Positions 323 to 24,499 of a stretch of DNA of 50,425 nt are shown piece by piece. Where the stretch lies: the sequence record SRR22947725_875, one strand, 5' to 3'. Each line of letters opens with the position of its first letter. Position 1 is the stretch's first letter. The translations under genes were made by a program, and so were the position numbers. The notes beneath the pieces were generated by a model that was not told the DNA's origin, did not search any database, and saw only the letters and a list, made by a program, of their open reading frames with translations.

Positions 323-332
323 TTGAATTTAT

Positions 333-8612: not shown

Positions 8613-8632
8613 GTTAAATTATTAAATTTTAA

Positions 8633-8670
8633 AAAAGCGGCAATTTTTTTATTGCCGCTTTTCTTTTTTT
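8633..8670 (+). terminator. Intercistronic hairpin / intrinsic terminator after SBP gene
   Basis: AAAAGCGGCAAT-tttttt-ATTGCCGCTTTT perfect 12-bp stem followed by a T-rich tract. Confidence 0.8.
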
Positions 8671-8707
8671 AATTATTCTAAATAAGCAATTACGAAAAAT
8701 ACAAATT

Positions 8708-9721
8708 ATGATTAATTTTATTCAGTTCACTTTAACAAGAGCTTTTTTATCTATTATAACATTACTCATAGTTTGTTTTATTGTTTTTTCTTTAATGGAG
8801 TTAGTTCCAGGAACTTGTGCTGAGCGTTATCTTGCTTTTAAAAATACTCAAGGTTCACAAATAACGTTTGAAGACATTGCAGCTGAAGAAAAAAGATTAG
8901 GATTAGATAAACCCTTTTTATATCGGTACACCAAATGGGTATCAGATATAGTTATTAAACAAGATTTTGGAGATAGCTGTATTTTGCGAATTAGCATCAA
9001 CGAGCTTTTAAGTGGAAGATTTGTTTTATCTTTAACAATTGCTATAACAGCTTTATTATTTTCCTATGCTATCGCCATTCCTGTAGGAATTATTTCGGCC
9101 ACAACGAAGTACGCCTCTTTAGATAATGCTTTAAAGTTTATAAGCTATCTTGGTATTGCTTTACCTAATTTTTTAGTGGCACTTTGTATTATGTTATTTA
9201 TGACAGTGTACTATGGAGACACTATGACTGGATTATTTTCACAAGAATATGAAAATGCACCTTGGTCTTCTGCAAAGGTTCAAGATTTTTTAAGTAGAGC
9301 ATGGTTACCAATTTTTGTGTTGGGCTGGAATGCTACTGCATTTGCTCTTCAAACAGTACGTGCCTTAATGCTTGATGAAAATGACAAATTATATGTCATG
9401 GCAGCTCGTGCTAGAGGTGTTTCTGGAATGAGTTTACTATGGCGTTATCCTGCTAAACATTCACTTGGACCAGTAATTAATTCAATAGGTTTTGATTTAA
9501 ATAGAATTTTTAGTGCACTCCCTGTTGTTGCACTTATTTTAATTTTAACTGAGGCTGGAGCTTTGTTAATAGAAGCTTTAGCAAGGTCGAATGATCAGCA
9601 ATTAGCTGGAGCTATAATATTCTTGCTTACAGCTACAATTGTTTTTGTAAATTTTGTCACTGATATTATTTTAGCAATAATGGATCCTAGGATAAGAAAA
9701 GGAGTAATGGGTGGAGGTTAG
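8708..9721 (+). CDS. ABC transporter permease (OppB/DppB type)
   Basis: LGLDKP..RY..W, EAA-like loop YVMAARARGVS, C-terminal DPRIR. Confidence 0.92.
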   Translation: MINFIQFTLTRAFLSIITLLIVCFIVFSLMELVPGTCAERYLAFKNTQGSQITFEDIAAEEKRLGLDKPFLYRYTKWVSDIVIKQDFGDSCILRISINELLSGRFVLSLTIAITALLFSYAIAIPVGIISATTKYASLDNALKFISYLGIALPNFLVALCIMLFMTVYYGDTMTGLFSQEYENAPWSSAKVQDFLSRAWLPIFVLGWNATAFALQTVRALMLDENDKLYVMAARARGVSGMSLLWRYPAKHSLGPVINSIGFDLNRIFSALPVVALILILTEAGALLIEALARSNDQQLAGAIIFLLTATIVFVNFVTDIILAIMDPRIRKGVMGGG

Positions 9722-10871
9722 TTCAGCAAAAAAAGAAGCATATTTTACTGCTACTCAAATGCAGCTGGTGCGAACACGTTTTTTTGGAAATAGAACAGCT
9801 ATGATAGCTGGTTCTATTTTATTATTTATGATTGTTTGTAGTCTATTTGCAGACTTTTTATCACCTTATGATCCTACAATTGCTGGTCGAGATAAAGAGT
9901 ATGAAAATGGAGCTCCTCAAATACCAATGTTTTGGGATAAAAATGGATTTTCTCCCAGACCTTTTCTACATACTCTGACCAAATACAGAGGTGCCGATAC
10001 TAACTTTAGATGGGTATATAAAATAGATGATGATAAAAGAAGGTATGTTTATTTCTTTGTAAAAGGATGGGAATATAAATCTCTAGATTTTAAAATTAAT
10101 TTACCTGGAAAAAAATTTGATTTTCAATTTCCTGGATTCACTTCTGATCGTCATTTATTTGGAACTAAAGAAGGTGGTATTCATTTATTTGGAACTGATA
10201 AGGCAGGAAAAGATTTATTTAGTAGAACTTTGAGTGCAATTTATATTTCCTTGGCTGTAGGAACATTAGGTGTATTCATATCTTTTGTCTTATCTTTAAT
10301 TATTGGAGGTATTTCAGGATATTATGGTGGATGGATAGATAGTCTGCTCCAAATGTTTACTGATGCGATAAGGACGGTTCCGCCCATACCATTATTTATG
10401 TGTTTGGCCGCGTTTGCACCTCAAGAATGGAGTTCTGAGCTGAGGTTTTTCTTTATATCATGTCTCTTAGGATTAATTTCTTGGCCAACATTAGCTCGAC
10501 GAGTTCGAACACATTTATTAAGTGAAAGAAGTCAAGAATATATTCTTGCAGCGCAAATGTCTGGAGCATCTTCTGCACATATTATAGGGCGTCATCTTTT
10601 ACCAAGCTTTACAAGTTACATAATTGTCGACTTGGTTATCAGCTTTCCTTATATGTTGTTATCTGAAACAGCACTGAGTTTTATTGGCTTAGGATTAAGA
10701 GAGCCAGTTAATTCATTAGGAGTGCTATTACAAAATGCAACTAAAGCTGATGTACTTTTAAATTATCAATGGTATTTTATTCCAGTATTTTTCTTAGTTG
10801 TTTTAATTTTATCTTTTGTTTTTGTTGGAGATGGTCTTCGCGATGCAGCTGATCCTCATAAAAATAAATAA
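9711..10871 (+). CDS. ABC transporter permease (OppC/DppC type)
   Basis: LFGTDKAGKDLFSR, EYILAAQMSGAS..HLLP, ETALSFIGLG, GDGLRDAADP. Confidence 0.92.
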   Translation: MEVSSAKKEAYFTATQMQLVRTRFFGNRTAMIAGSILLFMIVCSLFADFLSPYDPTIAGRDKEYENGAPQIPMFWDKNGFSPRPFLHTLTKYRGADTNFRWVYKIDDDKRRYVYFFVKGWEYKSLDFKINLPGKKFDFQFPGFTSDRHLFGTKEGGIHLFGTDKAGKDLFSRTLSAIYISLAVGTLGVFISFVLSLIIGGISGYYGGWIDSLLQMFTDAIRTVPPIPLFMCLAAFAPQEWSSELRFFFISCLLGLISWPTLARRVRTHLLSERSQEYILAAQMSGASSAHIIGRHLLPSFTSYIIVDLVISFPYMLLSETALSFIGLGLREPVNSLGVLLQNATKADVLLNYQWYFIPVFFLVVLILSFVFVGDGLRDAADPHKNK

Positions 10872-10873
10872 TC

Positions 10874-11854
10874 ATGTCCGCATTACTAGATATTAAAAAT
10901 TTAAATGTTCAATTTGATACAGATGAAGGAAGAATTGTAGCTGTAGAAAATATTTCATTATCTGTAAATGCTGGAGAGGTGTTAGGGGTTGTTGGAGAGT
11001 CGGGATCAGGTAAATCTGTTACTGCAAAATCAATTATGCAGTTAAATCCTGGTAACACTCACTATAATGAAGATGCAGAAATTATTATTGATGGAGAAAA
11101 CACTCTTAAGTTTACCTCCAAAGAAGATTTGAAAAAAATTAGGGGTGGTAAAGTGTCAATGATATTTCAAGAGCCTATGGCTAGTTTTGCCCCAGCAATA
11201 AAAATTGGCGCACAGATGGTAGAACAATTACTTTTACATAAACCAATTGATAAAAAAGAAGCAAAATCGATATCTGTTGATATGTTAAAGAGAGTAGGAA
11301 TAGCTGACGCAGAAAAAAGATTTAATCAATATGCTTTTGAATTATCGGGCGGTATGCGCCAAAGAGCTATGATTGCAATGGCTCTATCTACGATGCCAAA
11401 ATTATTATTAGCTGATGAGCCTACAACTGCTCTTGATGTTACAATACAAGCTCAAGTTATAAATTTAATTAAAGATATTATTAAAGAATATCAAATGGGA
11501 GTTATGTTTATTACTCATGATCTAGGTGTAATTGCACAAACAGCTGATAATGTTGCTGTTATGTATTTAGGAGCTATAGTTGAGAAAGGTCCAGTCAGAG
11601 AGATAATTAAAAATCCAAAGCATCCTTATACAAGAGGTTTGTTAAAAGCGCTGCCAGATATAAACAATTTAGATGCTCCACTTCAGCCAATACCTGGAAG
11701 TATCCCAAGTCCTTTGGAGCGTCCAAGTGGTTGTGTATTCAGAACTCGTTGCCCACATCCTACTCAAGAAGGGAAAGAAGGACGAATTAATATGGGCTTA
11801 ATAGAAGTTAGTCCAGGCCATTGGGTAGACCGATGTGGTGTGAATTGTGGATAG
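10874..11854 (+). CDS. ABC transporter ATP-binding protein (OppD/DppD type)
   Basis: Walker A GESGSGKS, LSGGMRQR, ADEPTTALD, ITHDL, HPYT C-terminal domain. Confidence 0.95.
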   Translation: MSALLDIKNLNVQFDTDEGRIVAVENISLSVNAGEVLGVVGESGSGKSVTAKSIMQLNPGNTHYNEDAEIIIDGENTLKFTSKEDLKKIRGGKVSMIFQEPMASFAPAIKIGAQMVEQLLLHKPIDKKEAKSISVDMLKRVGIADAEKRFNQYAFELSGGMRQRAMIAMALSTMPKLLLADEPTTALDVTIQAQVINLIKDIIKEYQMGVMFITHDLGVIAQTADNVAVMYLGAIVEKGPVREIIKNPKHPYTRGLLKALPDINNLDAPLQPIPGSIPSPLERPSGCVFRTRCPHPTQEGKEGRINMGLIEVSPGHWVDRCGVNCG

Positions 11855-11862
11855 GAAAATTT

Positions 11863-12855
11863 ATGAATGATAATCTTGTTAGTGTAAAAAATGTTTCTGT
11901 TGAGTTTGATTATCAAGAAAATTTTCTATCAAAAAAACAGAAAATCCAAGCCGTAAAAAATGTTAGTTTAGATATTAAGAAAAAATCATTTTTAGGTTTA
12001 GTAGGGGAGTCAGGTTCAGGCAAAACAACATTGGGGAAAGCAATATTAGGGGCTAATAAAATTAGTTCTGGACAAGTAATTTTTCATGATGAACATACAG
12101 ACTACGATCTTGCTAATATCAATAAAAAAGAATTAAAAGAGTATAGAAAAAAAGCGCAATTAATATTTCAAGATCCATATGCAGCTTTAAGCCCTAGAAT
12201 GACAGTTAGAGATATTATAGCGGAACCTTTAGAGGTTATGAAAATAACAAAATCTCGTGAAGAAACTGATGAACGAGTAAGAGATATCGCTTCAAAATGT
12301 CGACTAAATCTAGAGCATTTGAGAAGGTACCCTCATGCTTTTTCAGGAGGACAACGTCAAAGAATTTCTATTGCTAGATCACTTGTAAGTTATCCTAAAT
12401 TTATAGTTGCTGATGAGAGTGTTGCCGCTTTAGATGTATCAATTCAGGCTGATATTTTAAATCTATTAAAATCTCTACAAAAAGATTTGGACCTAACTTA
12501 TTTATTTATTAGTCATGATTTAAGTGTTGTTGCGCATACATGTGATGAAGTGGCTGTTATGTATCTCGGGCATATCGTTGAGCAAGCACCATCTAGGGAG
12601 CTTTTTACCAACCCTCGTCATCCATACACAAAAGCACTTTTATCTTCTATTCCTGCTATTGATCCTGATGATCAAAAAAAAGCAATAGAATTAACAGGAG
12701 AAATACCTAGCGCAATGAATCCACCTTCAGGATGTGTCTTTCGAACAAGGTGCCCACATGCTTCACCAGACGGGAAGGAGGCAGGCATCAAAATGGGTTT
12801 AGTAGAAGTTTCACCAGGACATTGGGTAGATCAATGCGGTGTTAATTGTGGGTGA
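11863..12855 (+). CDS. ABC transporter ATP-binding protein (OppF/DppF type)
   Basis: GESGSGKT, FSGGQRQR, ISHDL, HPYT; start moved to ATG 11863, downstream of AGGA and of the previous stop. Confidence 0.93.
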   Translation: MNDNLVSVKNVSVEFDYQENFLSKKQKIQAVKNVSLDIKKKSFLGLVGESGSGKTTLGKAILGANKISSGQVIFHDEHTDYDLANINKKELKEYRKKAQLIFQDPYAALSPRMTVRDIIAEPLEVMKITKSREETDERVRDIASKCRLNLEHLRRYPHAFSGGQRQRISIARSLVSYPKFIVADESVAALDVSIQADILNLLKSLQKDLDLTYLFISHDLSVVAHTCDEVAVMYLGHIVEQAPSRELFTNPRHPYTKALLSSIPAIDPDDQKKAIELTGEIPSAMNPPSGCVFRTRCPHASPDGKEAGIKMGLVEVSPGHWVDQCGVNCG

Positions 12856-13751
12856 AAAATAATCTATTTTTAGCAGTTGTTCTTTCCTTATCTGGGTTAT
12901 TTTTATTAGATTGTATGGGTATTGCCATAAAATACCTTAGAGAAGATTATCCAGCGGCACAATTATCAGTTTTTAGAAATCTGTTTGGAATGATACCGTG
13001 TTTTATTGTTTTATATTTTTCTAAAGACTGGCATGCTAATGGAAGGAAAATAGTAATTAAAAGATGGCGTTTTGGTCTAGCTAGAGGTCTAATTATGTCT
13101 TTTGCACAACTATGTTTATATACTTCTTATCTCTATTTACCTTATGCTTTGGTTGCAACTATGGAGTACACAGGGCCTATGATGATTACGTTATTGGCAA
13201 TACCTCTACTTGGTGAAAAATTTGGATGGTATAAATCTTTAGCCGTATTAACAGGTTTCATAGGTATAATATTTATTATGCAACCTTGGTCTGAAAGCTT
13301 TAATTTTTATATGTTACTTCCTGTAATGGCTGCCTTTGGTTATTCTCTTGCGAGAGTAACAGCTTTAAATTTTTCAAATGATACTCCTGTGCCATTAATA
13401 AATCTTTACGCTAATATAGGAACTTTAATTTGCGCAATACTCTTAGTTATTACATTTAATATGTGGGAAAATTTTAAAAGTTTATATGATTTACTTATAT
13501 TATTTATAATGGGTATAGCAGGTGGTTCAGGGGTATTGTTATTAATTTATGGTTCGAGAAAAGCAGAACTTAGTAAAATTATGCCCTTTGATTATATTGA
13601 AATATTTTTTGCTTTAATTTTAGGGTGGGTATTCTTTAGAGAGTGGCCAGTAGATCAATTATTCCCAGGTGCTTTATTTATAGTCGCTGGGGGAATCATA
13701 ATATATTTACGTCAAATGAATTCTTTAGAAACTAGAGATAGAAAAGTATAA
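12852..13751 (+). CDS. DMT/EamA family transporter
   Basis: About 10 TM helices, LLGEK motif; GTG start overlaps the upstream TGA (GTGA). Confidence 0.85.
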   Translation: MKNNLFLAVVLSLSGLFLLDCMGIAIKYLREDYPAAQLSVFRNLFGMIPCFIVLYFSKDWHANGRKIVIKRWRFGLARGLIMSFAQLCLYTSYLYLPYALVATMEYTGPMMITLLAIPLLGEKFGWYKSLAVLTGFIGIIFIMQPWSESFNFYMLLPVMAAFGYSLARVTALNFSNDTPVPLINLYANIGTLICAILLVITFNMWENFKSLYDLLILFIMGIAGGSGVLLLIYGSRKAELSKIMPFDYIEIFFALILGWVFFREWPVDQLFPGALFIVAGGIIIYLRQMNSLETRDRKV

Positions 13752-14800
13752 TGAAAATTAAAAGAGAAAAAGTAGATAACCCAACTCAACTAAATATAGA
13801 GTCAATTGAAATACATAATGACAATAATTTTAGTTTTAAATTTTATACTTATGGTGGTTACATTCATGAAGTCAAAATACCTTTAAATAATCAAGAAGAT
13901 AAAACAGAAGATGTTTTATTAGGCTACGGAAATATTGATGGAGTTTTAGAGTCTCATGGGTATTTTAATTCTATAGTTGGAAGAGTTGCCAATAGAATAA
14001 GGTCTTCAAAGTTTAATATAGACGATAATGAATATCAACTTTACTCTAATGTTGCTCCCAATCATTTACATGGAGGTAAAGTAGGTTTTAATAAAAAAAT
14101 ATGGAAGATAGAAAATATTGATGAAACAAAAAACTCTATCAAATGTATAATGAAATATTTTTCTCAAGATATGGAAGAAAATTATCCCGGCAATCTTAAT
14201 TGCACTGTTAGCTACGAATTAAATAATAACAATGAACTCTTAATAGATTTTAAGGCAACAACTGATAAAGACACAATTGTAAATATGACTAATCATAATT
14301 ATTGGAATTTTCATGGACATGGAGATCATTATCAAAACAATGAAGATCACATTGTATCGATCAATTCAAAATCAATATGTGAAACAGATGAGCAATCTAT
14401 TCCAACTGGTAAAATTACAAATGTTATGGGGTCAAAATTTGATTTGCAAAAAGATTTTTTAATAAATAAAGATTTTCTCAGCTCTGGTGGTATTGATCAT
14501 AATTATGTTGTAAATGATCAGTCAATGAAAGAATCTGTAGCTAAAATTTATAGCAAAAAAACTGGTTTAGGTGTTGAGTATTTTACAAACCAAAATGGCA
14601 TTCAATTTTATACGGGGAATATGATGTTAAATAAATATATTGGAAAGCACAATAAGTCATATGGCTTGCAACACGGTATGTGTTTAGAGCCTCAGCAATA
14701 TCCAGATGCTATTAATCATCCTAATTTTCCTTCTCCAATTCTTAGAAAAAATAAAAATTATTTATCAAAAATAAAAATTAAATTACGTAACAATTTTTAA
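13751..14800 (+). CDS. galM: Aldose 1-epimerase (mutarotase)
   Basis: GRVANRI, NHLHGG, YPG, NMTNHNYWN, IDHNY, QFYTGN, CLEPQ. Confidence 0.92.
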   Translation: MKIKREKVDNPTQLNIESIEIHNDNNFSFKFYTYGGYIHEVKIPLNNQEDKTEDVLLGYGNIDGVLESHGYFNSIVGRVANRIRSSKFNIDDNEYQLYSNVAPNHLHGGKVGFNKKIWKIENIDETKNSIKCIMKYFSQDMEENYPGNLNCTVSYELNNNNELLIDFKATTDKDTIVNMTNHNYWNFHGHGDHYQNNEDHIVSINSKSICETDEQSIPTGKITNVMGSKFDLQKDFLINKDFLSSGGIDHNYVVNDQSMKESVAKIYSKKTGLGVEYFTNQNGIQFYTGNMMLNKYIGKHNKSYGLQHGMCLEPQQYPDAINHPNFPSPILRKNKNYLSKIKIKLRNNF

Positions 14801-14849: not shown

Positions 14850-15347
14850 ATGAAAATTAGCCAAAAAATAATTACGAATTTAAAATCAGGTGGTGCTGAC
14901 TTTTTTTTGAGTGTTCCATGTAAATTATTGGCGAATATGATTACGATTTTAGAAAATGATAAAGATATTTATTATTCAGCAATTCCAAGAGAAGAAGAAG
15001 GAATGGGAATTTGTGCTGGAGCCTATTTAGGTAATAAACTTCCATGTATTATGATGCAAAATACAGGTATTGGTAATTCAGTAAACTCCATAGTTTCTCT
15101 ACTTCAGTTATATCAAATGCCAGTTGTTTTTCTTATTAGCTACAGAGGTACACCTGGAGAGCCTGTAGGTGCACAAGGTGGCATGGCAAGTGTAACTGAA
15201 GATATTCTAAATACACTCCGAATACCAATGTTGCATTGTAACACTGAAGAAGATCTTGATAAAATTTCTACTTTTACTAATCATGCGAAAGTAATTGAAA
15301 GTCCAGTGGCTGTGTTATGTAATTTTAATATAATGAAAGAAGATTAA
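14850..15347 (+). CDS. comD: Sulfopyruvate decarboxylase alpha subunit
   Basis: SVPC, REEEGMGICAGAYLG, MQNTGIGNSVN, ISYRG..GE; ThDP PYR domain of ComD size. Confidence 0.85.
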   Translation: MKISQKIITNLKSGGADFFLSVPCKLLANMITILENDKDIYYSAIPREEEGMGICAGAYLGNKLPCIMMQNTGIGNSVNSIVSLLQLYQMPVVFLISYRGTPGEPVGAQGGMASVTEDILNTLRIPMLHCNTEEDLDKISTFTNHAKVIESPVAVLCNFNIMKED

Positions 15348-15919
15348 TGATGAATAGATTTGAATTATTAAATCTCTTACAAGATACCATCCAAGAAGAG
15401 CTTGTTGTTTGTAATATTGGTCTTCCATCTCAAGAATTATATAAAATTAACGACCGTCCTAATTATTTTTATATGTTAGGCAGTATGGGTTTAGCTTCTT
15501 CAATTGGTCTAGGTCTTTCTTTAGCGATAGATAAAAATGTTATTAGCATTGATGGAGATGGCTCAGTTTTAATGAATATGAACACACTTGCAACGATTGG
15601 TAATAGGGCACCTTCAAACTATACTCTTTTAATAGTTGATAATGGGTCTTATGGATCAACAGGAGATCAAAAAACTTTTACAAATGAACGAACATCTTTA
15701 AAGGATGTCGCTATAGGAGCTGGTTGTCCTAATGTAATCGAATGCTCTGGAGAAGAAACTAATGAAAATTTACAAAAAGCTCTAGATGATAAAAACAATT
15801 CATATGTTATTATTTCAAAAATAACGTCAGGGAATGTCCCAATAAAACCAATACCTCTTAACGCTGTAACAATAAGAGATCGATTTAGGAAAGAAATAGG
15901 TTTAGTTACTTATCTTTAG
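15347..15919 (+). CDS. comE: Sulfopyruvate decarboxylase beta subunit
   Basis: NIGLPSQELY..DRP.YFYMLGSMGLASSIGLG, GDGS ThDP motif, DNGSYGSTGDQKT; 1-nt overlap with comD. Confidence 0.85.
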   Translation: MMNRFELLNLLQDTIQEELVVCNIGLPSQELYKINDRPNYFYMLGSMGLASSIGLGLSLAIDKNVISIDGDGSVLMNMNTLATIGNRAPSNYTLLIVDNGSYGSTGDQKTFTNERTSLKDVAIGAGCPNVIECSGEETNENLQKALDDKNNSYVIISKITSGNVPIKPIPLNAVTIRDRFRKEIGLVTYL

Positions 15920-15934
15920 TTTTTATAAGGCACT

Positions 15935-16840
15935 ATGATTTATTCAGTAGGTTCAATTTTTCTTGATCATATAATTAAAATTAATTCTTTTCCAAAAAAA
16001 CCAATTAAAGTACTTGCCGAAGGAATTGAAAAAAGACTTGGTGGATCTGCAGCAGTTGCTAGTTTTACTATAAAAAAACTCGGAATAGACTCATCTTTTA
16101 TTGGTAGGTTAGGTGATGATGATGTTTCTAAGTATCTAAAAGAGGAGTTGAATACTTTTAAAATTAAACACAAAGATATTATTACTATTAAGGGCGCTAA
16201 ATCATCCCAGAGTTATGTTTATGAAGATAAGAATGGAGAAAGACTTCTCGCGGCCTTTAATGAAAAAAAATTACTAAATAGTAAAAAATTGCCAAAAATT
16301 TCCTTTGCAAACAATACAACTTTTATGAGCGATTTACGATGGATTGAAGCAACTCTTTATATTGCTAAAAATTGTAAAAAAAATAATTTAATTCAGGTTG
16401 TTGATTTAGATAATTATAAGTTAAACACTAAAATAAAACAAATTGTTGATCTATCTTCTTTTCCGATCTTTTCAGAGACTGGAGCATTTGAGTATACTAA
16501 AATTAAATCGATTATTGGTTCGTTAAAAAAAATGTACTCTAAAAAAAATAAGTTTTATGCCATAACTGCTGGTGAAAAAGGAGTTTATTGGATTGAAAAT
16601 GGAAATATTTTTAACTGCAAGCCTCCTAAAATAAAAGTTGTTGAAACTAATTGTGCTGGAGATGTTTTTCATGGTGCGTTTGCAGCTTTTATTCATCAAA
16701 AACATTCTGTGATGGATACAATGAAATTAGCGACTGCTACCGCTTCATTAAAATGTACAAAAAAGGGAGGTATTTACTCCATACCTTCTTACTCATCTGT
16801 TAAAAAATTTGAAAACAAAATTCAATTAAGAAAAATATAA
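15935..16840 (+). CDS. PfkB-family sugar kinase, sulfofructose kinase (YihV)-like
   Basis: GGSAA, FIGRLGDD, AKSSQS, GER, DLRW, AGDVFHGA, LKCT..GG parallel E. coli YihV as recalled. Confidence 0.75.
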   Translation: MIYSVGSIFLDHIIKINSFPKKPIKVLAEGIEKRLGGSAAVASFTIKKLGIDSSFIGRLGDDDVSKYLKEELNTFKIKHKDIITIKGAKSSQSYVYEDKNGERLLAAFNEKKLLNSKKLPKISFANNTTFMSDLRWIEATLYIAKNCKKNNLIQVVDLDNYKLNTKIKQIVDLSSFPIFSETGAFEYTKIKSIIGSLKKMYSKKNKFYAITAGEKGVYWIENGNIFNCKPPKIKVVETNCAGDVFHGAFAAFIHQKHSVMDTMKLATATASLKCTKKGGIYSIPSYSSVKKFENKIQLRKI

Positions 16841-16844
16841 TTTT

Positions 16845-17768
16845 ATGAAAATACTAATTACAGAATTTATGGAAGATAAAAGTGTAGAAATGCTAAACAG
16901 GAATTTTGATGTTACAGTTGATAAAAGCTTATCCTTAAATCATAACGAGTTAAAAAAAATAATTAGTAATTTCGATATTTTAATTGTTAGGAATAAAACA
17001 CAGGTTAATAAAGAAATATTAGAAAATGCATCAAGCTTAAAATTTATTGGACGCTTAGGGGTTGGTTTAGATAATATTGATACTGAGTATTGTAGAAATA
17101 ATAATATTCATGTTCAGCCAGCAACAGGTATGAATGCAGACTCCGTTGCAGAATATGTGATTAATTGTTCGCTATCTTTGTTAAAAAATATTCCTTTAAT
17201 GCATCAAGAAACTTCTCTTGGAAATTGGCCTAGAACTTCAATTTCTTCAAGAGAATTAAATGGTAAGATATTTGGCTTAATGGGTTTTGGTTTAATTGCT
17301 AAAAAAGTTAGCACTCTGGCTAAAATATTTAATGCTCACATAATTGCTTATGACCCATTTATTGATTCAAATATTGCAAATGAATTTAATATTAAATTAG
17401 TTGATATAAATGAGATCTTCGAACAGGCCAATGTTATTTCTATTCATTTACCTTTAACACCAACAACTCAAAACTTATTAAACTATGATGCTTTTATAAA
17501 AATGCAAAAGCAACCAATTATTATTAATTCCTCCAGAGGGTCTATAATTAATGAAGACGACTTATTGAAAGCTTATGATGAAAAACTAATTTCTGGCTTT
17601 GCTTTAGATGTTTATGAAACTGAGCCAGCACCAAAATTTTTTTTAGATAGTATAAAGAATAATACTAATTGTATTCTTACTCCTCATATTGCTGGAGTTA
17701 CAGAAGAGTCAAATATTAGAGTAAGTGATTTTATTGCAAATTCAGTAAAAGAATTTTTTAAATTATAG
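16845..17768 (+). CDS. slcC: D-2-hydroxyacid dehydrogenase, (S)-sulfolactate dehydrogenase-like
   Basis: ILITEFM, LIVRNKTQV, GRLGVGLDNID, PATG.N..SVAEYV, WPR, TPHIAGVTEESN match SlcC as recalled; clustered with comDE. Confidence 0.72.
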   Translation: MKILITEFMEDKSVEMLNRNFDVTVDKSLSLNHNELKKIISNFDILIVRNKTQVNKEILENASSLKFIGRLGVGLDNIDTEYCRNNNIHVQPATGMNADSVAEYVINCSLSLLKNIPLMHQETSLGNWPRTSISSRELNGKIFGLMGFGLIAKKVSTLAKIFNAHIIAYDPFIDSNIANEFNIKLVDINEIFEQANVISIHLPLTPTTQNLLNYDAFIKMQKQPIIINSSRGSIINEDDLLKAYDEKLISGFALDVYETEPAPKFFLDSIKNNTNCILTPHIAGVTEESNIRVSDFIANSVKEFFKL

Positions 17769-18851
17769 TTTAAACTCTTTCATAAATACAACTCGGTTTT
17801 CTTTTATGGAATATTCAGCTGCTTCACCTATAGCTACTGACATTAGTCCATCTTTTAAAGATACTTCTGGTTTTTTATTTTTTTGAATAGTATCAATAAA
17901 AGCTAAATGTTCAAAATATGTTGATCCATGATGATGTCCTGCGGCTAATATTTCTTTATCAACTTTGACTTTACTTGAATGAGTGATATTATTTTCTCTG
18001 AGGCTAATTTTAACTTCTGATGAGTCCTTTCCTGAAGCACTAGAGGGAACAAATGTTTCTATCTTCCCTTTATCTCCAACAGCAACTATTTCTTCTTGAT
18101 ATTCAGAATTTTCTGCAAACATACATAAATCAAGCATTCCTCGCACACCATTTTCAAAGTCTACTATAACAAATGCATTATCAATAATATCTGGAGTCTT
18201 GCCGTCATATAGTTCTTCTAGATGGTTAACATCCTGATTTCCACTAGCATAAACTTTAGTCGGTTCACTTTGAATAACCAGTCTCATAAGATCAAAAAAG
18301 TGACAACATTTTTCAACTAATGTTCCCCCAGTATTAACTGCAAATCTATTCCAATCATTCACTTTATGTAAAAAAGGAAATCGATGTTCGCGAATAGAAA
18401 GCATTTTTATTTTTCCAATTATACTATTATGAACTTCTTTAATTAATTGCTTTACTGGAGGCATGTATCTGTACTCCATTCCAGTCCAGATTATCTTAGA
18501 ATAATCCTTCGCAAGTAACTCAAATTTTTTACAATCTTCTGTTGTTGTACATAAAGGTTTTTCTATTAATAAATGTTTATTAGTTTTTAAAATGCGCTCT
18601 AATATATTGATGTGTGTAAAATTTGGTGTCGCAATAATATATGCATCTGCAATATTTTTATTTATTAATTCATCTAAATCATTGTAAAATTTTGTAGAGT
18701 TCTTCACTAATGATTTTGATTCGTTTCTTGAATTCTCATTAGTATCACAAATTGCTACAACTTCTGCATTCGCAATTATATTAATATTCTTAATATGTTC
18801 CTGGCCCATAACACCGGTTCCTATAATTCCATATTTTATTGTATTAGTCAT
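17763..18851 (-). CDS. Gfo/Idh/MocA oxidoreductase, probable NAD+-dependent sulfoquinovosidase (SqgA/GH188-like)
   Basis: GIIGTGVMG Rossmann, EKP, EYRY, REHRFPFLHKV..WNRF, GGTLVEKCCHFFDL, GHHHGS. Confidence 0.7.
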   Translation of the reverse strand: MTNTIKYGIIGTGVMGQEHIKNINIIANAEVVAICDTNENSRNESKSLVKNSTKFYNDLDELINKNIADAYIIATPNFTHINILERILKTNKHLLIEKPLCTTTEDCKKFELLAKDYSKIIWTGMEYRYMPPVKQLIKEVHNSIIGKIKMLSIREHRFPFLHKVNDWNRFAVNTGGTLVEKCCHFFDLMRLVIQSEPTKVYASGNQDVNHLEELYDGKTPDIIDNAFVIVDFENGVRGMLDLCMFAENSEYQEEIVAVGDKGKIETFVPSSASGKDSSEVKISLRENNITHSSKVKVDKEILAAGHHHGSTYFEHLAFIDTIQKNKKPEVSLKDGLMSVAIGEAAEYSIKENRVVFMKEFKL

Positions 18852-20224
18852 ATTGTATAAGTTGGTATCTTTAATTGTTTGCCTAAACTTTTTATGTCTT
18901 CAAGCACATCTCCATAAGTAAAACCTACATGATGCTCTAAACCACTTAAAAATAAATTTTTAATTTTTTTATGTGTATTTTTACCTAAACTGATTACTCC
19001 TGAAGTTCCAGAAAAAGAGTTTTTTCTTTTAAGAACCTTTCCATTCATTACAATAAATTTTAATTTATTTTCTGATTTTGAAACACGAAAAATTGTAATA
19101 TCACCTGATTTAAATGCAAAGTTATGCAAAAGTGGCTTTCTTCTATTTGAGTGAATTGTGGCACTAGGTGTATTTTTCTCTGCCATACTAATAGGTGCAA
19201 GTCCACAATGCCAAAAAACAGTAGTATTATCTTTCTGATCCACATCAACAATATCAACTAATAATGCAGGTTTATTATTTAATTGATTTAATATATTGCA
19301 GGTTAAACTTCCAAGAACATCAGCTTCACAGGCAGAGCTTATTTTATTTTCATTCATCATAGCCATTGGTCCGCAAGAAGCACAACCATATTCTGTAAAC
19401 ATCTCAGGCCAACAACGAACAGCAAATGCATCAATATTTTGTGTTTGTTGAATTTTTTCAAGACCATGGAATAATGATATACTTTTATTCAATTCTTTTT
19501 GATTTACATGATTGATGTTTTTAAGGTTTTTGCTTATATTTTTCTTAGTTTCACTGATTTTTTTAATATTAACTTTACTTGAAGTATTAAATAAGCTCTG
19601 CAATTTTATTTTAGTTACGTTTGCAATAAACTTTGATTTTAATTCTTGATTATTAAAATCACAAGTATCAAACCCTTCAGGTCTTTCACCAATTAGACCT
19701 AACTTTGGTTTCTTAAACTTTATTATTTTTTTGTTAACTAATTTTGAATTTATTTTCTTTAAATAATTTTTTTTTGTAAAATTATTATTTGTTCTCATAA
19801 ATTTCAATATTTCTTTAGAAAAAGACTGTTCATCATTGGTGTAAATTATAAAGTTAGAATAAAATTTACTTTTAATTAAAGCATGCAATCCTAAGTTTAC
19901 TCCACAAAGCGAATTTAGCCTTAATCGACCGCCTGATCTCTTTTCTCTAAATGAAATAAATAAAATTGGTTTTCTAAATTTTTTTGCGAATGCAAAAATA
20001 AATTTCGCATCAGTAAAAGTTGATTGAATAACTATAAATTTTTTACATTTAATATTTTTAAAGTATTTAATTGCATTTTTACCAATTGTATCATTAGTTA
20101 TTAAATCATCAAAAAATATTATCTTTTCATTTAATTTTGTAAGTGATTTTTTTGTTTTTAATAATTTTTTCTTAGCAAATTCAATATCAAAAGTTTCTCT
20201 TGCTAAACTAAAGCATCCAATCAT
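18848..20224 (-). CDS. L-fucose/L-arabinose isomerase-fold protein (putative SQ isomerase)
   Basis: NSLCG, AVRCWPE, CEADVLG, FWHCG, C-terminal EHH metal motifs of the FucI/AraA superfamily. Confidence 0.75.
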   Translation of the reverse strand: MIGCFSLARETFDIEFAKKKLLKTKKSLTKLNEKIIFFDDLITNDTIGKNAIKYFKNIKCKKFIVIQSTFTDAKFIFAFAKKFRKPILFISFREKRSGGRLRLNSLCGVNLGLHALIKSKFYSNFIIYTNDEQSFSKEILKFMRTNNNFTKKNYLKKINSKLVNKKIIKFKKPKLGLIGERPEGFDTCDFNNQELKSKFIANVTKIKLQSLFNTSSKVNIKKISETKKNISKNLKNINHVNQKELNKSISLFHGLEKIQQTQNIDAFAVRCWPEMFTEYGCASCGPMAMMNENKISSACEADVLGSLTCNILNQLNNKPALLVDIVDVDQKDNTTVFWHCGLAPISMAEKNTPSATIHSNRRKPLLHNFAFKSGDITIFRVSKSENKLKFIVMNGKVLKRKNSFSGTSGVISLGKNTHKKIKNLFLSGLEHHVGFTYGDVLEDIKSLGKQLKIPTYTI

Positions 20225-21243
20225 TAAAAGCCTTTATAAATATTTTTAAAGTTTGAGGAATTTTTTTGAATTAATTTTTCTGTTAAATATTTTTCTAAAG
20301 ATTGAGCATTTTTTTTTGTGAGTTCATTTAATTTTTTAACATAACCTACACTTTCATTACTAAGCTTTGCAGTAATTTTTTTATAATTTGGATAATCTTT
20401 AAAGGCATCTAGCCAAATAGTTCTGCCAGCTAGATATCCTGAGGCACCATTTTTATAAGCCAACTTTAAACAATTCAAAAAAGACTTCTTACTCATTCCA
20501 GAAGAAAGCATTACCCATGGAATATTTCTTGTAGCTTTAGATAATTGTTTAAAAGCATCTCTTGTAGCTTTATTAAATTTACTATTTTGTAATTGGCTAC
20601 TATCCACAGGACTTTCTAACTTAAAAATATCAACTTTATATTTTTCTTTAGAAAACTCTTTCACACTATTTATTACATGATTTTGATTTTTATCTAGTTG
20701 CTCTTTATAATCTTTAGAATACCCAGTTTCATTTTTAAATGGATAAACCAATAGCTCTAATAAAAAAGGAATATCAAATTTTTCACATTGCTTACCTATT
20801 GTTTCAATATACTTTTTTTGATGTTTAATAGAGTTTTTATCTGCATCAGGTCGATACCAAGCTAATACTTTTACAGCATCACCACCTATTCTTTTTATCT
20901 TTTCAACTGTCCAATTTTTTATATTTTTTGAATACCTGCCTTTGTGTTTTTCAATAAAATCATGATCCTCAAGAGTAATTATTAAACCTTTGCTTTTACT
21001 TGATGGAATAAGATTGGGTACTGAATAAACTGGATCCATTAATATAGCGGTAGAGTGTTGAGAAAGGTTTAACGAGATATTTTTTTTAAAATCTACAACA
21101 TCTTTATAGGTGTATCTTTTTTTTTTCTCTTTTATCAAATTAAATATTGGTGGTCTCTGATCAATTGCGAGCATTTGTAAATGGCTTTGATCATTACACA
21201 ATTTTTTAATATGAACTAGTTTACCAATATTATCAGATCCCAT
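20224..21243 (-). CDS. Class I aldolase, LacD/YihT family (putative sulfofructose-1-phosphate aldolase)
   Basis: MLAIDQR, KVL, LLE, DIFKLE Schiff-base Lys, PWVMLSSG, GASGYLAGRTIW. Confidence 0.82.
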   Translation of the reverse strand: MGSDNIGKLVHIKKLCNDQSHLQMLAIDQRPPIFNLIKEKKKRYTYKDVVDFKKNISLNLSQHSTAILMDPVYSVPNLIPSSKSKGLIITLEDHDFIEKHKGRYSKNIKNWTVEKIKRIGGDAVKVLAWYRPDADKNSIKHQKKYIETIGKQCEKFDIPFLLELLVYPFKNETGYSKDYKEQLDKNQNHVINSVKEFSKEKYKVDIFKLESPVDSSQLQNSKFNKATRDAFKQLSKATRNIPWVMLSSGMSKKSFLNCLKLAYKNGASGYLAGRTIWLDAFKDYPNYKKITAKLSNESVGYVKKLNELTKKNAQSLEKYLTEKLIQKNSSNFKNIYKGF

Positions 21244-21482: not shown

Positions 21483-22739
21483 ATGATTAAATCAATTTTA
21501 AAATTATTTTCAGTAGCTTTTATTTCTTTTTCACTAACTGTAATTTCAACAGTAGCCTCTGCAGAAATTACAATTAACTGGCCGTCAATTTGGGTTGGAA
21601 AAGACTCAAAGACAACAGTTATTGGTGAACTTGTAGATGAATTCAATACTGCAAACGCCGGCTCTATTAAAGTTGTTATAGAAGAACAAACTGATTATGA
21701 CATTTACGCACAAAAATTAACTGCTCAGTTATCTACTGGTACATTACCAGATATATTCACAGTTGGTGCAGACTTATTAGATATTTTGCACAGAAGTGGC
21801 AAAGCTATGGATCTTGCTCCACATGTATCATCTGATTCACATTGGAATAATGTTTACCCAGAAGGAGCACTTGAAAGCAATATGATGGATGGGCAATTAA
21901 ATTATTTACCGTATGAGCTTTTTGTCGTACCCGTAACATATAATAAAAAATTATTAAAAGCTGCTGGTTATGATGAATTTCCAGATAACTATGATGATTT
22001 CTTTAAAATGTGTGAAGCTGTAACTGCTACGGGTGTAGCATGTACATCACAGATGACAGCTAAAAATGCATGGACTTCAATGCTTTGGTTTTCTCAAGCA
22101 TTAGCTTCAGCAGGGGGACCAGACATTTATGAAAAAGGTTTGGATGATCCAGCTTTTGTTAAAGCTTTTGAAGTTATGGAAAAAATGTATCAATATACAA
22201 CTTCTGACGCAATTGGTGCGGATGCTGGTGTTTCAGGTGGCCATTTCTTAAATGAAAGAACTGCAGTTTTCATGAATGGACCTTGGTTCATAGCTCGCTA
22301 CACTTCAGATGGTATACCTGGATTGCATGAAAATATTGGTGTTGCACCAGCTCCAATGCTTATGGGTGGAAAGGGCGCTCCCGGCGGATATGTAGGTGGA
22401 AAGCAATCTTCTCTAGCAGCTGGCAAACAATCTGATCCTGCAAAAGAAGAAGCTGTAGTTAAATTCCTTAAATGGTTAACTACTCCAGAAAATGTTGCAA
22501 GACTATCTTACAGCTCTGGTGCTATGTTTATTGTCAAGGCTGATTTGCCGAGTGATATGGACAGATTATTCATTGAAATGAATGAGCAAAAAGGAAATGC
22601 TCCTTACGTAGCTAAAACATTTATGAATGGCATGGGCTCATTACCAGTTGTTGCTGAATTTCCGCAAGCATTGTCAGCTTTAGCTTTAGGTGAAGTTACA
22701 CCAGAAGGTGCTGTTGAAATGCTTAAAGACGCAGACTAA
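21483..22739 (+). CDS. Carbohydrate ABC transporter substrate-binding protein (family 1)
   Basis: Signal peptide, LPDIF, YNKKLL..AG, MNGPW; SD GGAGG upstream. Confidence 0.9.
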   Translation: MIKSILKLFSVAFISFSLTVISTVASAEITINWPSIWVGKDSKTTVIGELVDEFNTANAGSIKVVIEEQTDYDIYAQKLTAQLSTGTLPDIFTVGADLLDILHRSGKAMDLAPHVSSDSHWNNVYPEGALESNMMDGQLNYLPYELFVVPVTYNKKLLKAAGYDEFPDNYDDFFKMCEAVTATGVACTSQMTAKNAWTSMLWFSQALASAGGPDIYEKGLDDPAFVKAFEVMEKMYQYTTSDAIGADAGVSGGHFLNERTAVFMNGPWFIARYTSDGIPGLHENIGVAPAPMLMGGKGAPGGYVGGKQSSLAAGKQSDPAKEEAVVKFLKWLTTPENVARLSYSSGAMFIVKADLPSDMDRLFIEMNEQKGNAPYVAKTFMNGMGSLPVVAEFPQALSALALGEVTPEGAVEMLKDAD

Positions 22740-22749
22740 AAATCTAAAT

Positions 22750-22781
22750 AACTATGAGGTATTAAATACCTCATAGTTTTC
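22750..22781 (+). terminator. Intercistronic hairpin after SBP gene
   Basis: AACTATGAGGTAT-taa-ATACCTCATAGTT 13-bp perfect stem followed by TT. Confidence 0.75.
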
Positions 22782-22788
22782 TCATTTT

Positions 22789-23661
22789 ATGAAAATTAAA
22801 AAAGATGAAGTTGTATGGCTTTTATTATTTATAGCGCCTACAATAATTTTATTCACTCTCTTTTTTATTATACCAATTCTTTTTCTTTTTATAACAAGCT
22901 TCACTAATTGGGATGGCATAAGTGCTGAATTTGTTGGATTTGAAAACTACGTTAAACTATTTAATAAAAAAAGTTTTATCAATGCTATTACGAATAACTT
23001 ATACTGGTGTGTTACAGCGGCATTAATAACAGTTCCATTAGCTCTGATAATTGCTTTACTTTTAGCTCATAGATCAAGAGGTTGGAAGGTCTTTAGAACA
23101 GTTCTCTTTGTGCCTCAGGTTGTTTCATCAGCTGCTATAGCTATGCTTTGGGCTGCGATGTTTAATGCTGAATATGGTTTAGTTAATTTTTTATTAGATT
23201 ATATCGGTTTCTCAGATTATAAAAATCATAATTGGCTGGGGAACATAAGGACGGCTAATGCAGCATTAATTGGTTTTTCTTTATGTTATGTCGGATATTT
23301 TATGGTTATTATGCTTGCAAAAACTGCTGGTATTTCTGAAGATTATTATGATGCTGCAAATATTGATGGTGCAAGTCAATTTCAAAAGGATTTACATATT
23401 ACGGCACCGTTAATAAAAAGCACTTTTTTTCTTTGTATTATTTTAGCTGTAATATTTAATTTGAGGCAATTCGAATATGTTTATCTAATGACTGCTGGTG
23501 GTCCTGCTAATAAAACTCAGGTTCTTGTTGTTTATATTTGGAATGAGTTAACAGTTCAAAGACTGGGTCGAGGCAATGCAGCCGGAGTTATAATGATAGC
23601 TATAGGTGCTATTCTTTTACTCTCTTTGAGAAAATTATTAAAAAGTGAAACCTACAATTAA
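22789..23661 (+). CDS. Carbohydrate ABC permease (MalF/UgpA type)
   Basis: SFTNWDG, FVGFENY, EAA loop YYDAANIDGAS, MTAGGP. Confidence 0.92.
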   Translation: MKIKKDEVVWLLLFIAPTIILFTLFFIIPILFLFITSFTNWDGISAEFVGFENYVKLFNKKSFINAITNNLYWCVTAALITVPLALIIALLLAHRSRGWKVFRTVLFVPQVVSSAAIAMLWAAMFNAEYGLVNFLLDYIGFSDYKNHNWLGNIRTANAALIGFSLCYVGYFMVIMLAKTAGISEDYYDAANIDGASQFQKDLHITAPLIKSTFFLCIILAVIFNLRQFEYVYLMTAGGPANKTQVLVVYIWNELTVQRLGRGNAAGVIMIAIGAILLLSLRKLLKSETYN

Positions 23662-23662
23662 T

Positions 23663-24499
23663 ATGCAAAAAGATCTTTCCTCAAACTTTTATTTTATTTT
23701 TAAATGGGTAATAATTATTTCTTTTGTATTTTATGCTGTATTTCCTTTTTTATGGTTAGTACTTGCTTCATTGAAAACCAACGCTGAATTACTCAATAAC
23801 CCATTTGCGCTACCTGAAGTTTTTCAGTTTAAAAACTATTCCAATGCTATTCAAGAGGCAGGACTTGGAAGATTAATAATTAATTCTCTTGTAATAAGTA
23901 CTAGTGCAACTTTTTTAAATATTTTGTTTTCATCAATGTGTGCTTTTGCAATAGCCAGACATACATTTTGGGGAAATAATGTTTTGTTTTTAATGATTAC
24001 TGCAGGTATTTTAGTACCATTAAATGCACTTATAATTCCTTATTTTGCAATAATTAATTTTTTAAATCTTTATGATACAAGAATTGGTTTGATTATAGTT
24101 TATTGCGCTGTTGGTCTTCCTGTATCAACATTCATATTAACAGAGTTTTTTAAATCTATCCCAAAGGAAATTGAAGAAGCTTCATATCTTGATGGTTGTA
24201 ATTTTGCTGCAAGATATTTTAAAATTATGCTACCACTTGCTTTACCTGGTTTAGCAACAGCAGGAACATTCCAGTTTATTTTGTGTTGGAATGAATTTAT
24301 ATATGCAATGCTCTTAACTTCCTCAACAGATATTAGAACAATTCAATTTGGTATTAGTTATTTTACTAATCAATTCTTTTCAGATTACGTAGGAATGTTT
24401 GCAGCAGTTGTGATAAGTATTATTCCAAGTATTACCGTTTTTATTCTTTTTCAGGAAAAAGTTATCAATGGTTTAACTGCTGGATCAGTGAAGGGTTAG
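23663..24499 (+). CDS. Carbohydrate ABC permease (MalG/UgpE type)
   Basis: SLKT, IPKEIEEASYLDGC, WNEF, C-terminal GLTAGSVKG; ATG 23663 preferred over GTG 23645. Confidence 0.92.
   Translation: MQKDLSSNFYFIFKWVIIISFVFYAVFPFLWLVLASLKTNAELLNNPFALPEVFQFKNYSNAIQEAGLGRLIINSLVISTSATFLNILFSSMCAFAIARHTFWGNNVLFLMITAGILVPLNALIIPYFAIINFLNLYDTRIGLIIVYCAVGLPVSTFILTEFFKSIPKEIEEASYLDGCNFAARYFKIMLPLALPGLATAGTFQFILCWNEFIYAMLLTSSTDIRTIQFGISYFTNQFFSDYVGMFAAVVISIIPSITVFILFQEKVINGLTAGSVKG

Follow-up and report, generated by a model that had tools for sequence, protein, structure and literature searches.

The stretch of DNA analyzed here (sequence record SRR22947725_875; 50,425 nt, 29.8% G+C; hereafter the window) contains sqgA, the last gene of a three-gene operon on the minus strand in which it is preceded by genes for a class I aldolase and an isomerase. 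Genes for a 2-hydroxyacid dehydrogenase, a PfkB-family kinase, the two subunits of a sulfopyruvate decarboxylase, an aldose 1-epimerase and several transporter proteins are found on the plus strand (Table 1). An earlier note on this DNA had proposed that sqgA codes for an NAD+-dependent sulfoquinovosidase rather than an inositol dehydrogenase. This proposal was supported by the scores against SqgA enzymes of known structure, by the active-site residues, by the predicted fold and by the gene cluster. We consider it highly likely that sqgA encodes a member of glycoside hydrolase family 188 (GH188), with a predicted NAD+-dependent sulfoquinovosidase activity and a predicted substrate. Of the organic sulfur that phototrophs make, glycosides of sulfoquinovose (SQ), a sulfur sugar of plants and algae, form one of the largest pools, and a sulfoquinovosidase is the gate to their use.

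Family assignment of the SqgA protein

The five motifs quoted in the earlier note were all found in the translation of the open reading frame (ORF) of sqgA. They are located at residues 126–129 (EYRY), 154–164 (REHRFPFLHKV), 167–170 (WNRF), 175–188 (GGTLVEKCCHFFDL) and 305–310 (GHHHGS), and a Rossmann glycine motif was present at residues 8–16. When 25 homologs with 49–90% identity were aligned, the motif columns showed little or no variation, and the motifs are therefore real signatures of the family and not chance strings.

The relationship of the window protein to proteins of known structure was examined by a phmmer search against all PDB sequences, in which 76 distinct sequences matched at E ≤ 0.001. 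The highest scores were for FlSqgA (8qc2/8qc8; 372.6 bits), ArSqgA (8qc3/8qc5/8qc6; 372.0 bits) and RdSqgA (8zn9; 341.2 bits), and all three matches were essentially full length, covering residues 1–356. The next Gfo/Idh/MocA structure was 3ezy with 104.5 bits, and the solved inositol dehydrogenases scored about 57–67 bits. Paralogs in related genomes were at most 33% identical to the window SqgA.

Alternatively, the protein could be an ordinary sugar dehydrogenase of the Gfo/Idh/MocA type, such as inositol 2-dehydrogenase, and would then release an oxidized product and cleave no glycoside. Its Pfam matches (PF01408, PF02894 and PF22725) are only to the generic N- and C-terminal domains of this superfamily, and IolG (TIGR04380) was its top NCBIfam match. 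Close homologs in public records carry names such as 'Gfo/Idh/MocA family oxidoreductase [Alphaproteobacteria bacterium]', 'myo-inositol 2-dehydrogenase/D-chiro-inositol 1-dehydrogenase' and 'Inositol 2-dehydrogenase [Alphaproteobacteria bacterium MarineAlpha5_Bin5]', and a Pelagibacter homolog is found near iolG, iolE and iolD. However, the IolG score of 140.7 bits missed the curated equivalog cut-off of 355, and the solved inositol dehydrogenases fell far below the SqgA enzymes. In the Pelagibacter locus, that of HTCC8051, the SqgA homolog is accompanied by a separate and genuine IolG, which exceeds the cut-off with 398 bits, and no inositol pathway genes were detected in the window by Pfam and NCBIfam scans. 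The arginine and lysine that would bind a sulfonate and the acid/base residue His307 are moreover invariant. We regard an inositol dehydrogenase as very improbable, which agrees with what the earlier note had held.

The residues that contact the substrate were compared next to those of the characterized enzymes. In the complex of ArSqgA with NAD+ and SQ described in Kaur 2023 (PMC10755693), O1 of SQ is contacted by His321, O2 by Tyr136, O3 by His193 and Lys107 and O4 by Glu189, and the 6-sulfonate is bound by Arg166 and Lys172 as well as by the Leu170 backbone amide. Using the phmmer alignment and the native ArSqgA sequence from the supplement of that paper (chain index minus 13), ArSqgA K107, Y136, R166, L170, K172, E189, H193 and H321 were mapped to K98, Y127, R157, L161, K163, E180, H184 and H307 of the window protein. 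The RdSqgA residues listed in the available part of Ma 2025 (PMC12780224), namely K98, H183, Y127, R156, L160, K162 and E179, also mapped one to one. Every SQ-contacting residue named in these two sources is identical in the window SqgA, and the sulfonate triad R157/K163/L161 is present inside REHRFPFLHKV. The earlier note had suggested that the arginine and lysine of RFPFLxK bind the sulfonate; this matches Arg166 and Lys172 of ArSqgA, which are R157 and K163 here. We extended the comparison to the window protein and 88 near-full-length homologs from 90 loci, with two loci excluded for lack of a match of at least 330 residues. K98, Y127, E155, R157, L161, K163, E180, H184 and H307 were invariant in 89 of these 89 sequences, and no residue change in the active site distinguished the marine clade described below.

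The fold was predicted with AlphaFold2 from a 25-sequence alignment, and the model had a mean predicted local distance difference test (pLDDT) score of 90.9 and a pTM of 0.91. When the model was compared with the PDB by Foldseek, ranks 1–12 were taken exclusively by SqgA chains (8qc8, 8qc2, 8qc6, 8qc5, 8qc3 and 8zn9), with TM scores of 0.87–0.94, root-mean-square deviations of 1.7–2.0 and 44–48% identity; the TM scores to 8qc2, 8qc6 and 8zn9 were 0.92–0.94. Rank 13 was 3ezy, with a TM score of 0.74 and 26% identity. All the tests that were run, which covered sequence, residues, predicted fold and neighborhood, assign the window protein to GH188 as an SqgA. The GH188 family name and the occurrence of such genes in clusters without a GH31 gene, both given in the earlier note, are as stated in Kaur 2023 (PMC10755693).

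The gene cluster around sqgA

Table 1 Coordinates of sqgA and of the features around it in the window.
Feature	Position	Strand	Size	Remarks
Three sulfatase genes and a formylglycine-generating enzyme (FGE) gene	4852-6393; 24510-25793; 25795-26484; 28284-29792	-; +; +; -		
Opp/Dpp-type ABC transporter	6552..12855	+		686-aa family-5 binding protein, two permeases, two ATPases
EamA-family membrane transporter	12846..13751	+		
Aldose 1-epimerase, candidate YihR-type SQ mutarotase	13751..14800	+		PF01263; GalM-like
Sulfopyruvate decarboxylase ComD/alpha	14850-15347	+		TIGR03845
Sulfopyruvate decarboxylase ComE/beta	15347-15919	+		TIGR03846
PfkB-family kinase, candidate sulfofructose kinase	15935..16840	+	301 aa	PF00294
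D-2-hydroxyacid dehydrogenase, short, phosphoglycerate dehydrogenase (PGDH)-like	16845..17768	+	307 aa	PF02826; 1wwk PGDH, 179.7 bits
sqgA, predicted GH188 NAD+-dependent sulfoquinovosidase	17763..18851	-	362 aa	ATG start; single ORF at these coordinates
SqgA protein, Rossmann domain	residues ~5-124			Pfam and predicted structure
SqgA protein, C-terminal alpha/beta domain	residues ~138-355			Pfam and predicted structure
SqvD/SftI-type (fucose-isomerase-like) isomerase, candidate SQ-sulfofructose isomerase	18848..20224	-	458 aa	PF02952
Class I aldolase (DeoC/LacD), candidate sulfofructose-1-phosphate aldolase	20224..21243	-	339 aa	PF01791
Sugar-type (SBP_bac_1/8) ABC binding protein and two permeases	21483..24499	+		Divergent from the aldolase-isomerase-sqgA operon
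ORF with no Pfam or NCBIfam match	26474-28294	+	606 aa	Between the FGE-sulfatase gene and a sulfatase gene
PhyH-family oxygenase gene	29797-30627	-		Adjoins a sulfatase gene and uxuA

The stop codon of the isomerase gene overlaps the start of sqgA (ATGA). Three of the enzyme families of the sulfo-EMP (sulfo-Embden-Meyerhof-Parnas) pathway, those of YihV (PfkB kinase), YihT (PF01791 aldolase) and YihR (PF01263 mutarotase), were all found in the window by Pfam. No YihS-type isomerase (PF07221) was detected there by Pfam, and the SqvD/SftI-type enzyme stands in its place. The available part of Wei 2022 (PMC9594981) describes hybrid sulfo-EMP clusters in which an SqvD-type isomerase takes the place of YihS, as well as sulfo-EMP2, which has a PfkA-type SqiK and a class II SqiA. 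Since sulfo-EMP2 uses these two enzymes, we ruled out this pathway for the window cluster, which is instead a sulfo-EMP hybrid with an SqvD-type isomerase. The sulfofucose pathway (mBio 2025) was considered on account of the LacD-like aldolase and was rejected as the leading interpretation; as given in the available part of that source, it is Entner-Doudoroff (ED)-like, has other enzymes and has no known sulfofucosidase.

The best solved relative of the kinase was the sulfofructose kinase YihV (7ag6) with 135.6 bits, followed by two others with 96 and 66.6 bits. The aldolase matched PRK12858 with 323 bits, above the cut-off of 184. By sequence, it belongs to the Pfam family of YihT and is not a YihT ortholog. 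ComD scored 155.5 bits against TIGR03845 (cut-off 147.95) and ComE 218 bits against TIGR03846, just under the cut-off of 221.5.

We examined the window for a GH31 glycosidase. Of its 51 ORFs of at least 120 aa, 48 were scanned with Pfam; the other three (26087-26452, 38686-39102 and 41674-42105) are short and lie antisense within other genes. PF01055 (GH31) was absent from the 48 ORFs, as the earlier note had said of the cluster. GH31 was likewise not found in the nearest genome, which is 64% complete (G001 by our own numbering of genomes).

The PGDH-like dehydrogenase gene is convergent with sqgA and overlaps its 3' end by 6 nt. 3-Sulfolactate is the sulfonate analog of 3-phosphoglycerate, and for this reason we place the enzyme at the sulfolactate step, as a putative sulfolactate/sulfopyruvate dehydrogenase. 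In 31 of the 90 loci, which represent three kinds of neighborhood, the 3' end of sqgA has a homolog of this gene no more than 100 nt away. The two genes are convergent in the marine clade; in three Paracoccaceae loci the PGDH-like gene is on the same strand, 48–54 nt downstream. In a metagenome-assembled genome (MAG) of the Rhodobacteraceae, it closes a textbook sulfo-ED operon right after sqgA (L073:11110-12048, where L numbers are our own labels for loci), and the 14 ORFs scanned there include no aldehyde dehydrogenase. In Table S3 of Kaur 2023 (PMC10755693), PF02826 is entered under 'GabD/SlaB SLA dehydrogenase', SLA being sulfolactaldehyde.

This tight and recurrent adjacency might also be explained if the protein were an SQ-binding relative of SqgA that performs no hydrolysis, such as an SQ 3-dehydrogenase or an epimerase or isomerase of free SQ that partners with the PGDH-like enzyme. 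The pair in Pelagibacter, which has no recognizable sulfoglycolytic isomerase, kinase or aldolase of the window type, points in the same direction. On the other hand, Y127 and H307, the residues assigned to the chemistry at the glycosidic bond, are retained, and the three enzymes with 46–48% identity, which come from the Actinomycetota, a Flavobacterium strain and a Roseobacter, are all glycosidases. The lack of any distinguishing change in the active site of the marine clade also argues against such a function, and we consider it most unlikely in comparison with a sulfoquinovosidase.

The plus-strand ABC proteins encoded divergently from the sqgA operon may import sulfoquinovosyl glycerol (SQGro) or SQ. 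In the single-cell assembly AG-457-A08 (L011), whose SqgA is 90% identical to that of the window and which is the nearest named genome record, a different SBP1 system is present at L011:2327-5760. Its proteins are 24–27% identical to the window permeases and it has no match to the binding protein. This locus also carries a MalK-like ATPase and a second 2-hydroxyacid dehydrogenase. It looks as if a transporter cassette has been exchanged between the window and this relative.

The order of genes from the Opp-type transporter through sqgA was conserved in L011, L012, L015, L031, L032 and L041. The Opp-type permeases and ATPases were 81–93% identical to those of the window in clusters of relatives in which SqgA was only 62–72% identical. 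Across the genus subclades of L012, L015, L031, L032 and L041, they were 81–92% identical, and SqgA, kinase, dehydrogenase and mutarotase together spanned only 53–74%, so that divergence within the cluster is uneven. The EamA gene was conserved with the cluster in these six loci and in L091, and its product possibly exports a sulfonate or sulfite end product. Between positions 12500 and 22000, 66 promoter-like sites were detected against 60.2 expected and one terminator-like site against 2.7 expected; because the DNA is AT-rich, these scans are uninformative.

The sulfatase and FGE genes that flank the cluster suggest a wider organosulfur island. One of the flanking sulfatases is PehA-like, with 449 bits against a cut-off of 900. 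The 606-aa ORF among them had look-alikes by Atlas features in unnamed clusters, DUF6259 and GH123_N (0.94–0.99), which we take as leads only; it may be an unrecognized glycoside hydrolase that works with the sulfatases. A second PhyH-family oxygenase gene, in addition to the one in Table 1, was found at L030:12003-12986 beside the Pelagibacter SqgA-dehydrogenase pair.

Relatives of the window and SqgA homologs in SAR11

The nearest genome, G001, has 23% of sampled words in common with the window and an SqgA ortholog that is 94% identical. Orthologs with at least 62% identity were present in 18 of 25 genomes of the same genus (assemblies of 1.0–1.5 Mb, 56–89% complete). None of 16 genomes from another family of the same order had an ortholog, the best match being 28% identical. 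The assemblies of the relatives are about 1–1.6 Mb with 30% G+C. The host may belong to a lineage of the AEGEAN-169/HIMB59 type.

To place the window SqgA among its homologs, species-representative genomes were scanned, which returned 599 relatives in 600 candidate stretches; the best 80 of the 599 were used. A quick maximum-likelihood tree of 90 rows was built with IQ-TREE. In this tree, 34 of the 90 rows formed one clade with an SH-aLRT support of 100, which comprised the window, its genus, 16 Pelagibacteraceae rows and one row from a MAG labelled Ca. Pseudothioglobus aerophilus. The Pelagibacteraceae sequences were nested within the genus of the window. The SqgA of the Pseudothioglobus MAG, which carries a gammaproteobacterial label, is 68% identical to the window protein (L013:10001-11077), and the MAG also has the kinase, dehydrogenase, isomerase and aldolase of the window type (52–61%). 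Its position inside an alphaproteobacterial marine clade reflects either gene transfer or a binning error.

Homologs with 61–63% identity to the window SqgA were found in Ca. Pelagibacter ubique HTCC8051, Ca. Pelagibacter sp. HIMB1495 and many single-cell genomes of the Pelagibacteraceae. All nine key residues are kept in the SAR11 homolog (L030:9998-11996 in HTCC8051; also L016-L029), and its gene is convergent with that of a 57–60% homolog of the PGDH-like dehydrogenase. The neighbors in HTCC8051 include the TRAP transporter genes DctQMP and genes for a MauG-like di-haem protein, PhyH and 2-oxoglutarate-Fe(II) oxygenase proteins, an ApbA-like reductase, DUF1907, an HpcH aldolase and an aldehyde dehydrogenase, in addition to iolG/E/D. 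The Pelagibacter locus may represent an undescribed SQ route in SAR11.

Several observations weigh against the assignment of sqgA and of its cluster to SQ catabolism. The nearest characterized enzymes are only 46–48% identical to the window SqgA and all fall outside the 34-row marine subclade. The only stretch of the model with a pLDDT below 50 is residues 160–163, which form the sulfonate-binding loop, and the geometry of this loop is not readable from the model for that reason. The sole NCBIfam match of the isomerase, NF048012 (SftI), scored 298.9 bits, below the cut-off of 700. The nearest solved proteins of the aldolase were 8tnf, a 'DUF2090 protein' (257 bits), and LacD aldolases (130 bits), with YihT at 63 bits; no relevant paper on 8tnf was found in the literature searched, and this match adds no function for the aldolase. 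Neither a sulfolactaldehyde dehydrogenase (PF00171) nor a YihU-type reductase was found in the 48 ORFs scanned. This leaves a gap in the pathway as drawn, with no candidate for the conversion of sulfolactaldehyde to sulfolactate. In the Pelagibacter loci, no isomerase, kinase or aldolase of the window type was present beside sqgA, which runs counter to a simple account. GH31 genes occur in nine of 81 genomes of the same genus (G011, G017, G019, G020, G022, G023, G062, G064 and G066). On the supporting side, four libraries that are recorded as metatranscriptomes, each from a different study, gave contigs that partly cover sqgA (for example, 684 nt over 17847-18530 with 7 differences), and such contigs were also found on ComDE, kinase, mutarotase and aldolase genes. 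They show that near-identical sequence is present in RNA libraries, but they may be DNA carry-over, do not give expression levels and are no proof of transcription.

The GH31 genes bear on whether SqgA replaces GH31. In G011, G019, G020, G022 and G023, the coordinates put GH31 and the SqgA ortholog about 7–8 kb apart on one contig. Since some genomes have both genes, the replacement of GH31 is not universal in the genus and the distribution of the two families is not strictly complementary. The GH31 genes of the nine genomes code for about 800 aa. In G023 (L091:14917-17298), the gene follows a sugar ABC set (SBP1-permease-ATPase) right after the isomerase, and the aldolase of the window type is absent at this spot. 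The GH31 protein of L091 scored 175 bits to alpha-glucosidases and 79 bits to YihQ among solved proteins.

The presence of GH31 in the cluster of a sister subclade would be sensible if two glycosidases split the substrates between them. It is conceivable that the window protein is an SqgA-family enzyme with another natural substrate, such as beta-linked SQ glycans, lyso- or diacyl-sulfoquinovosyl glycerol lipids (SQDG) or a glycoside formed from a related 6-sulfo sugar. FlSqgA is active on both alpha- and beta-para-nitrophenyl (PNP)-sulfoquinovosides (Kaur 2023, PMC10755693). The LacD-like aldolase (tagatose-bisphosphate type), the GalM-like mutarotase and the extra histidine of the clade, with GHHHGS instead of GAHHGS, could be taken in the same sense. 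However, E180, which corresponds to the residue at the equatorial O4 in ArSqgA, and the remaining sugar contacts are unchanged. The isomerase has SftI as its sole family match, the closest solved relative of the kinase is a sulfofructose kinase, and the neighboring GH31 is closer to alpha-glucosidases than to YihQ. In addition, SQGro is the abundant marine form according to the available part of Ma 2025 (PMC12780224). We consider a different substrate improbable and favor SQGro as the substrate of the window SqgA.

Proposed pathway and comparison with known enzymes

Like its solved relatives, SqgA would use NAD+ as a catalytic cofactor. It would oxidize C3 of a sulfoquinovoside such as SQGro, eliminate the aglycone across C1–C2, re-add water and reduce C3, with SQ and glycerol as the net outcome. 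The 6-sulfonate would be held by R157, K163 and the L161 backbone NH. Of the other residues, K98 and H184 are predicted to work at O3, with Y127 at C2/O2, E180 at O4 and H307 at O1. In the cell, imported SQGro would be cleaved by SqgA, and the mutarotase and the SqvD-type isomerase would convert SQ to sulfofructose. The YihV-like kinase and the class I aldolase would then yield dihydroxyacetone phosphate and sulfolactaldehyde. After oxidation of sulfolactaldehyde to sulfolactate, the PGDH-like enzyme may form sulfopyruvate and ComDE sulfoacetaldehyde, which Xsc in the relatives would cleave to acetyl phosphate and sulfite. Xsc was found in all five relatives searched, each time with a score above 940 bits (curated cut-off, 676). 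These pathway steps are predictions, as are the functions given above to the dehydrogenase, to EamA and to the transporters.

The window SqgA is an uncharacterized member of a known family that is mis-named in public records. Row 470 of supplement 2 of Kaur 2023 (PMC10755693) lists A0A2S6SUV0, an 'Inositol 2-dehydrogenase' of 362 aa from Alphaproteobacteria bacterium MarineAlpha5_Bin5, and the GH188 list of that paper has one 'Pelagibacterales bacterium' entry as well. The homolog P0071 in our set, which is 86% identical to the window SqgA, has the same length, name and MAG; matched by description only, it is very probably this entry. The family assignment for the lineage is therefore effectively in print, as a table row. 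The assignment reported here corrects a widespread mis-annotation as 'inositol 2-dehydrogenase' or 'Gfo/Idh/MocA oxidoreductase', and what it adds is not the enzyme class but the combination of pathways and the type of host, streamlined bacterioplankton of the sea, along with the homologs in SAR11.

The literature searched, insofar as its text was available, held no discussion of SqgA or SQ use in SAR11, HIMB59 or AEGEAN-169; where AEGEAN-169 and sulfoquinovose occurred in one publication, the two words were unrelated in the available text. The text of the AEGEAN-169 paper names neither MarineAlpha5 nor AG-457 and has no mention of sulfatase, sulfonate or inositol. The available part of a 2026 review (PMC13436972) casts Pelagibacter as a consumer of short-chain sulfonates and does not mention SAR11, HIMB59 or AEGEAN. 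Within these available texts, we likewise found neither a streamlined marine alphaproteobacterial host, nor the combination of a hybrid sulfo-EMP pathway with ComDE (and Xsc in the relatives), nor the Pelagibacter homologs at 61–63% identity. According to the available part of Ma 2025 (PMC12780224), SQGro in the sea is consumed principally by Alteromonadaceae and Roseobacteraceae, and prokaryotic sqgA in Tara Oceans data was counted at a cut-off of 54% identity to RdSqgA. Since the window SqgA is 46% identical to RdSqgA, its clade would have gone uncounted in this ocean survey.

We tentatively propose, as a possibility that we hold to be rather less than even, that streamlined marine Alphaproteobacteria import SQGro and fully mineralize it in one cell with SqgA, the hybrid sulfo-EMP enzymes, the PGDH-like enzyme, ComDE and Xsc, and that the SqgA-PGDH pair of SAR11 represents a further route. 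If so, the route would be one that has not been described as a unit, and the PGDH-like proteins would be a new family for the sulfolactate step or even for the oxidation of sulfolactaldehyde. The most abundant oligotrophic bacterioplankton would then be direct consumers of SQ glycosides that were missed by a survey at 54% identity or above.

The founding members of GH188 are FlSqgA from Flavobacterium sp. K172 (8QC8, 8QC2) and ArSqgA from Arthrobacter sp. U41 (8QC3, 8QC5, 8QC6), both homodimers that form through the C-terminal beta-sheet (Kaur 2023, PMC10755693). The assay of that paper follows an NAD+-dependent, metal-independent hydrolysis of SQGro or PNP-SQ with incorporation of solvent hydrogen into C2. 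The window SqgA shares with these enzymes the two-domain Gfo/Idh/MocA fold (48% identity over the full length, TM score 0.94) and a place in a sulfo-EMP-type cluster without GH31. It differs from them in about half of its residues, in the absence of a 9-residue N-terminal extension and of two short insertions, and in the GHHHGS motif of its clade, which is GAHHGS in both ArSqgA and FlSqgA. Its cluster, unlike theirs, has an SqvD-type isomerase as well as ComDE, and its host is a marine alphaproteobacterium with 30% G+C and not a soil actinobacterium. RdSqgA (8ZN9) from Roseobacter denitrificans OCh 114, which was shown to cleave SQGro in the available part of Ma 2025 (PMC12780224), is likewise a marine alphaproteobacterial GH188 enzyme (TM score 0.92–0.93). 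However, it is only 46% identical to the window SqgA and is tied to the sulfolytic sulfo-SMO (SQ monooxygenase) pathway, whereas the window sqgA is tied to a sulfo-EMP-type pathway with C–C cleavage.

The GH31 enzymes YihQ (E. coli; 5AED) and SqgH (Alteromonas) do the same job as SqgA, freeing SQ from SQGro where SQ catabolism begins. They have an unrelated (beta/alpha)8 fold and use classical retaining hydrolysis that is specific for the alpha-linkage (PMC10755693), and neither is present in the window. Within the superfamily of the window SqgA, IolG (TIGR04380) has the same Rossmann N-terminal domain. The NAD+ chemistry of oxidation, elimination, hydration and reduction is shared with GH109 and GH4. 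GH109 also has a Gfo/Idh/MocA-like fold and two histidines, as SqgA does, and is 15% identical to ArSqgA (Kaur 2023, PMC10755693). Unlike SqgA, these two families act on GalNAc and phospho-glucosides as substrates, GH4 needs Mn2+, and neither has the sulfonate-binding loop.

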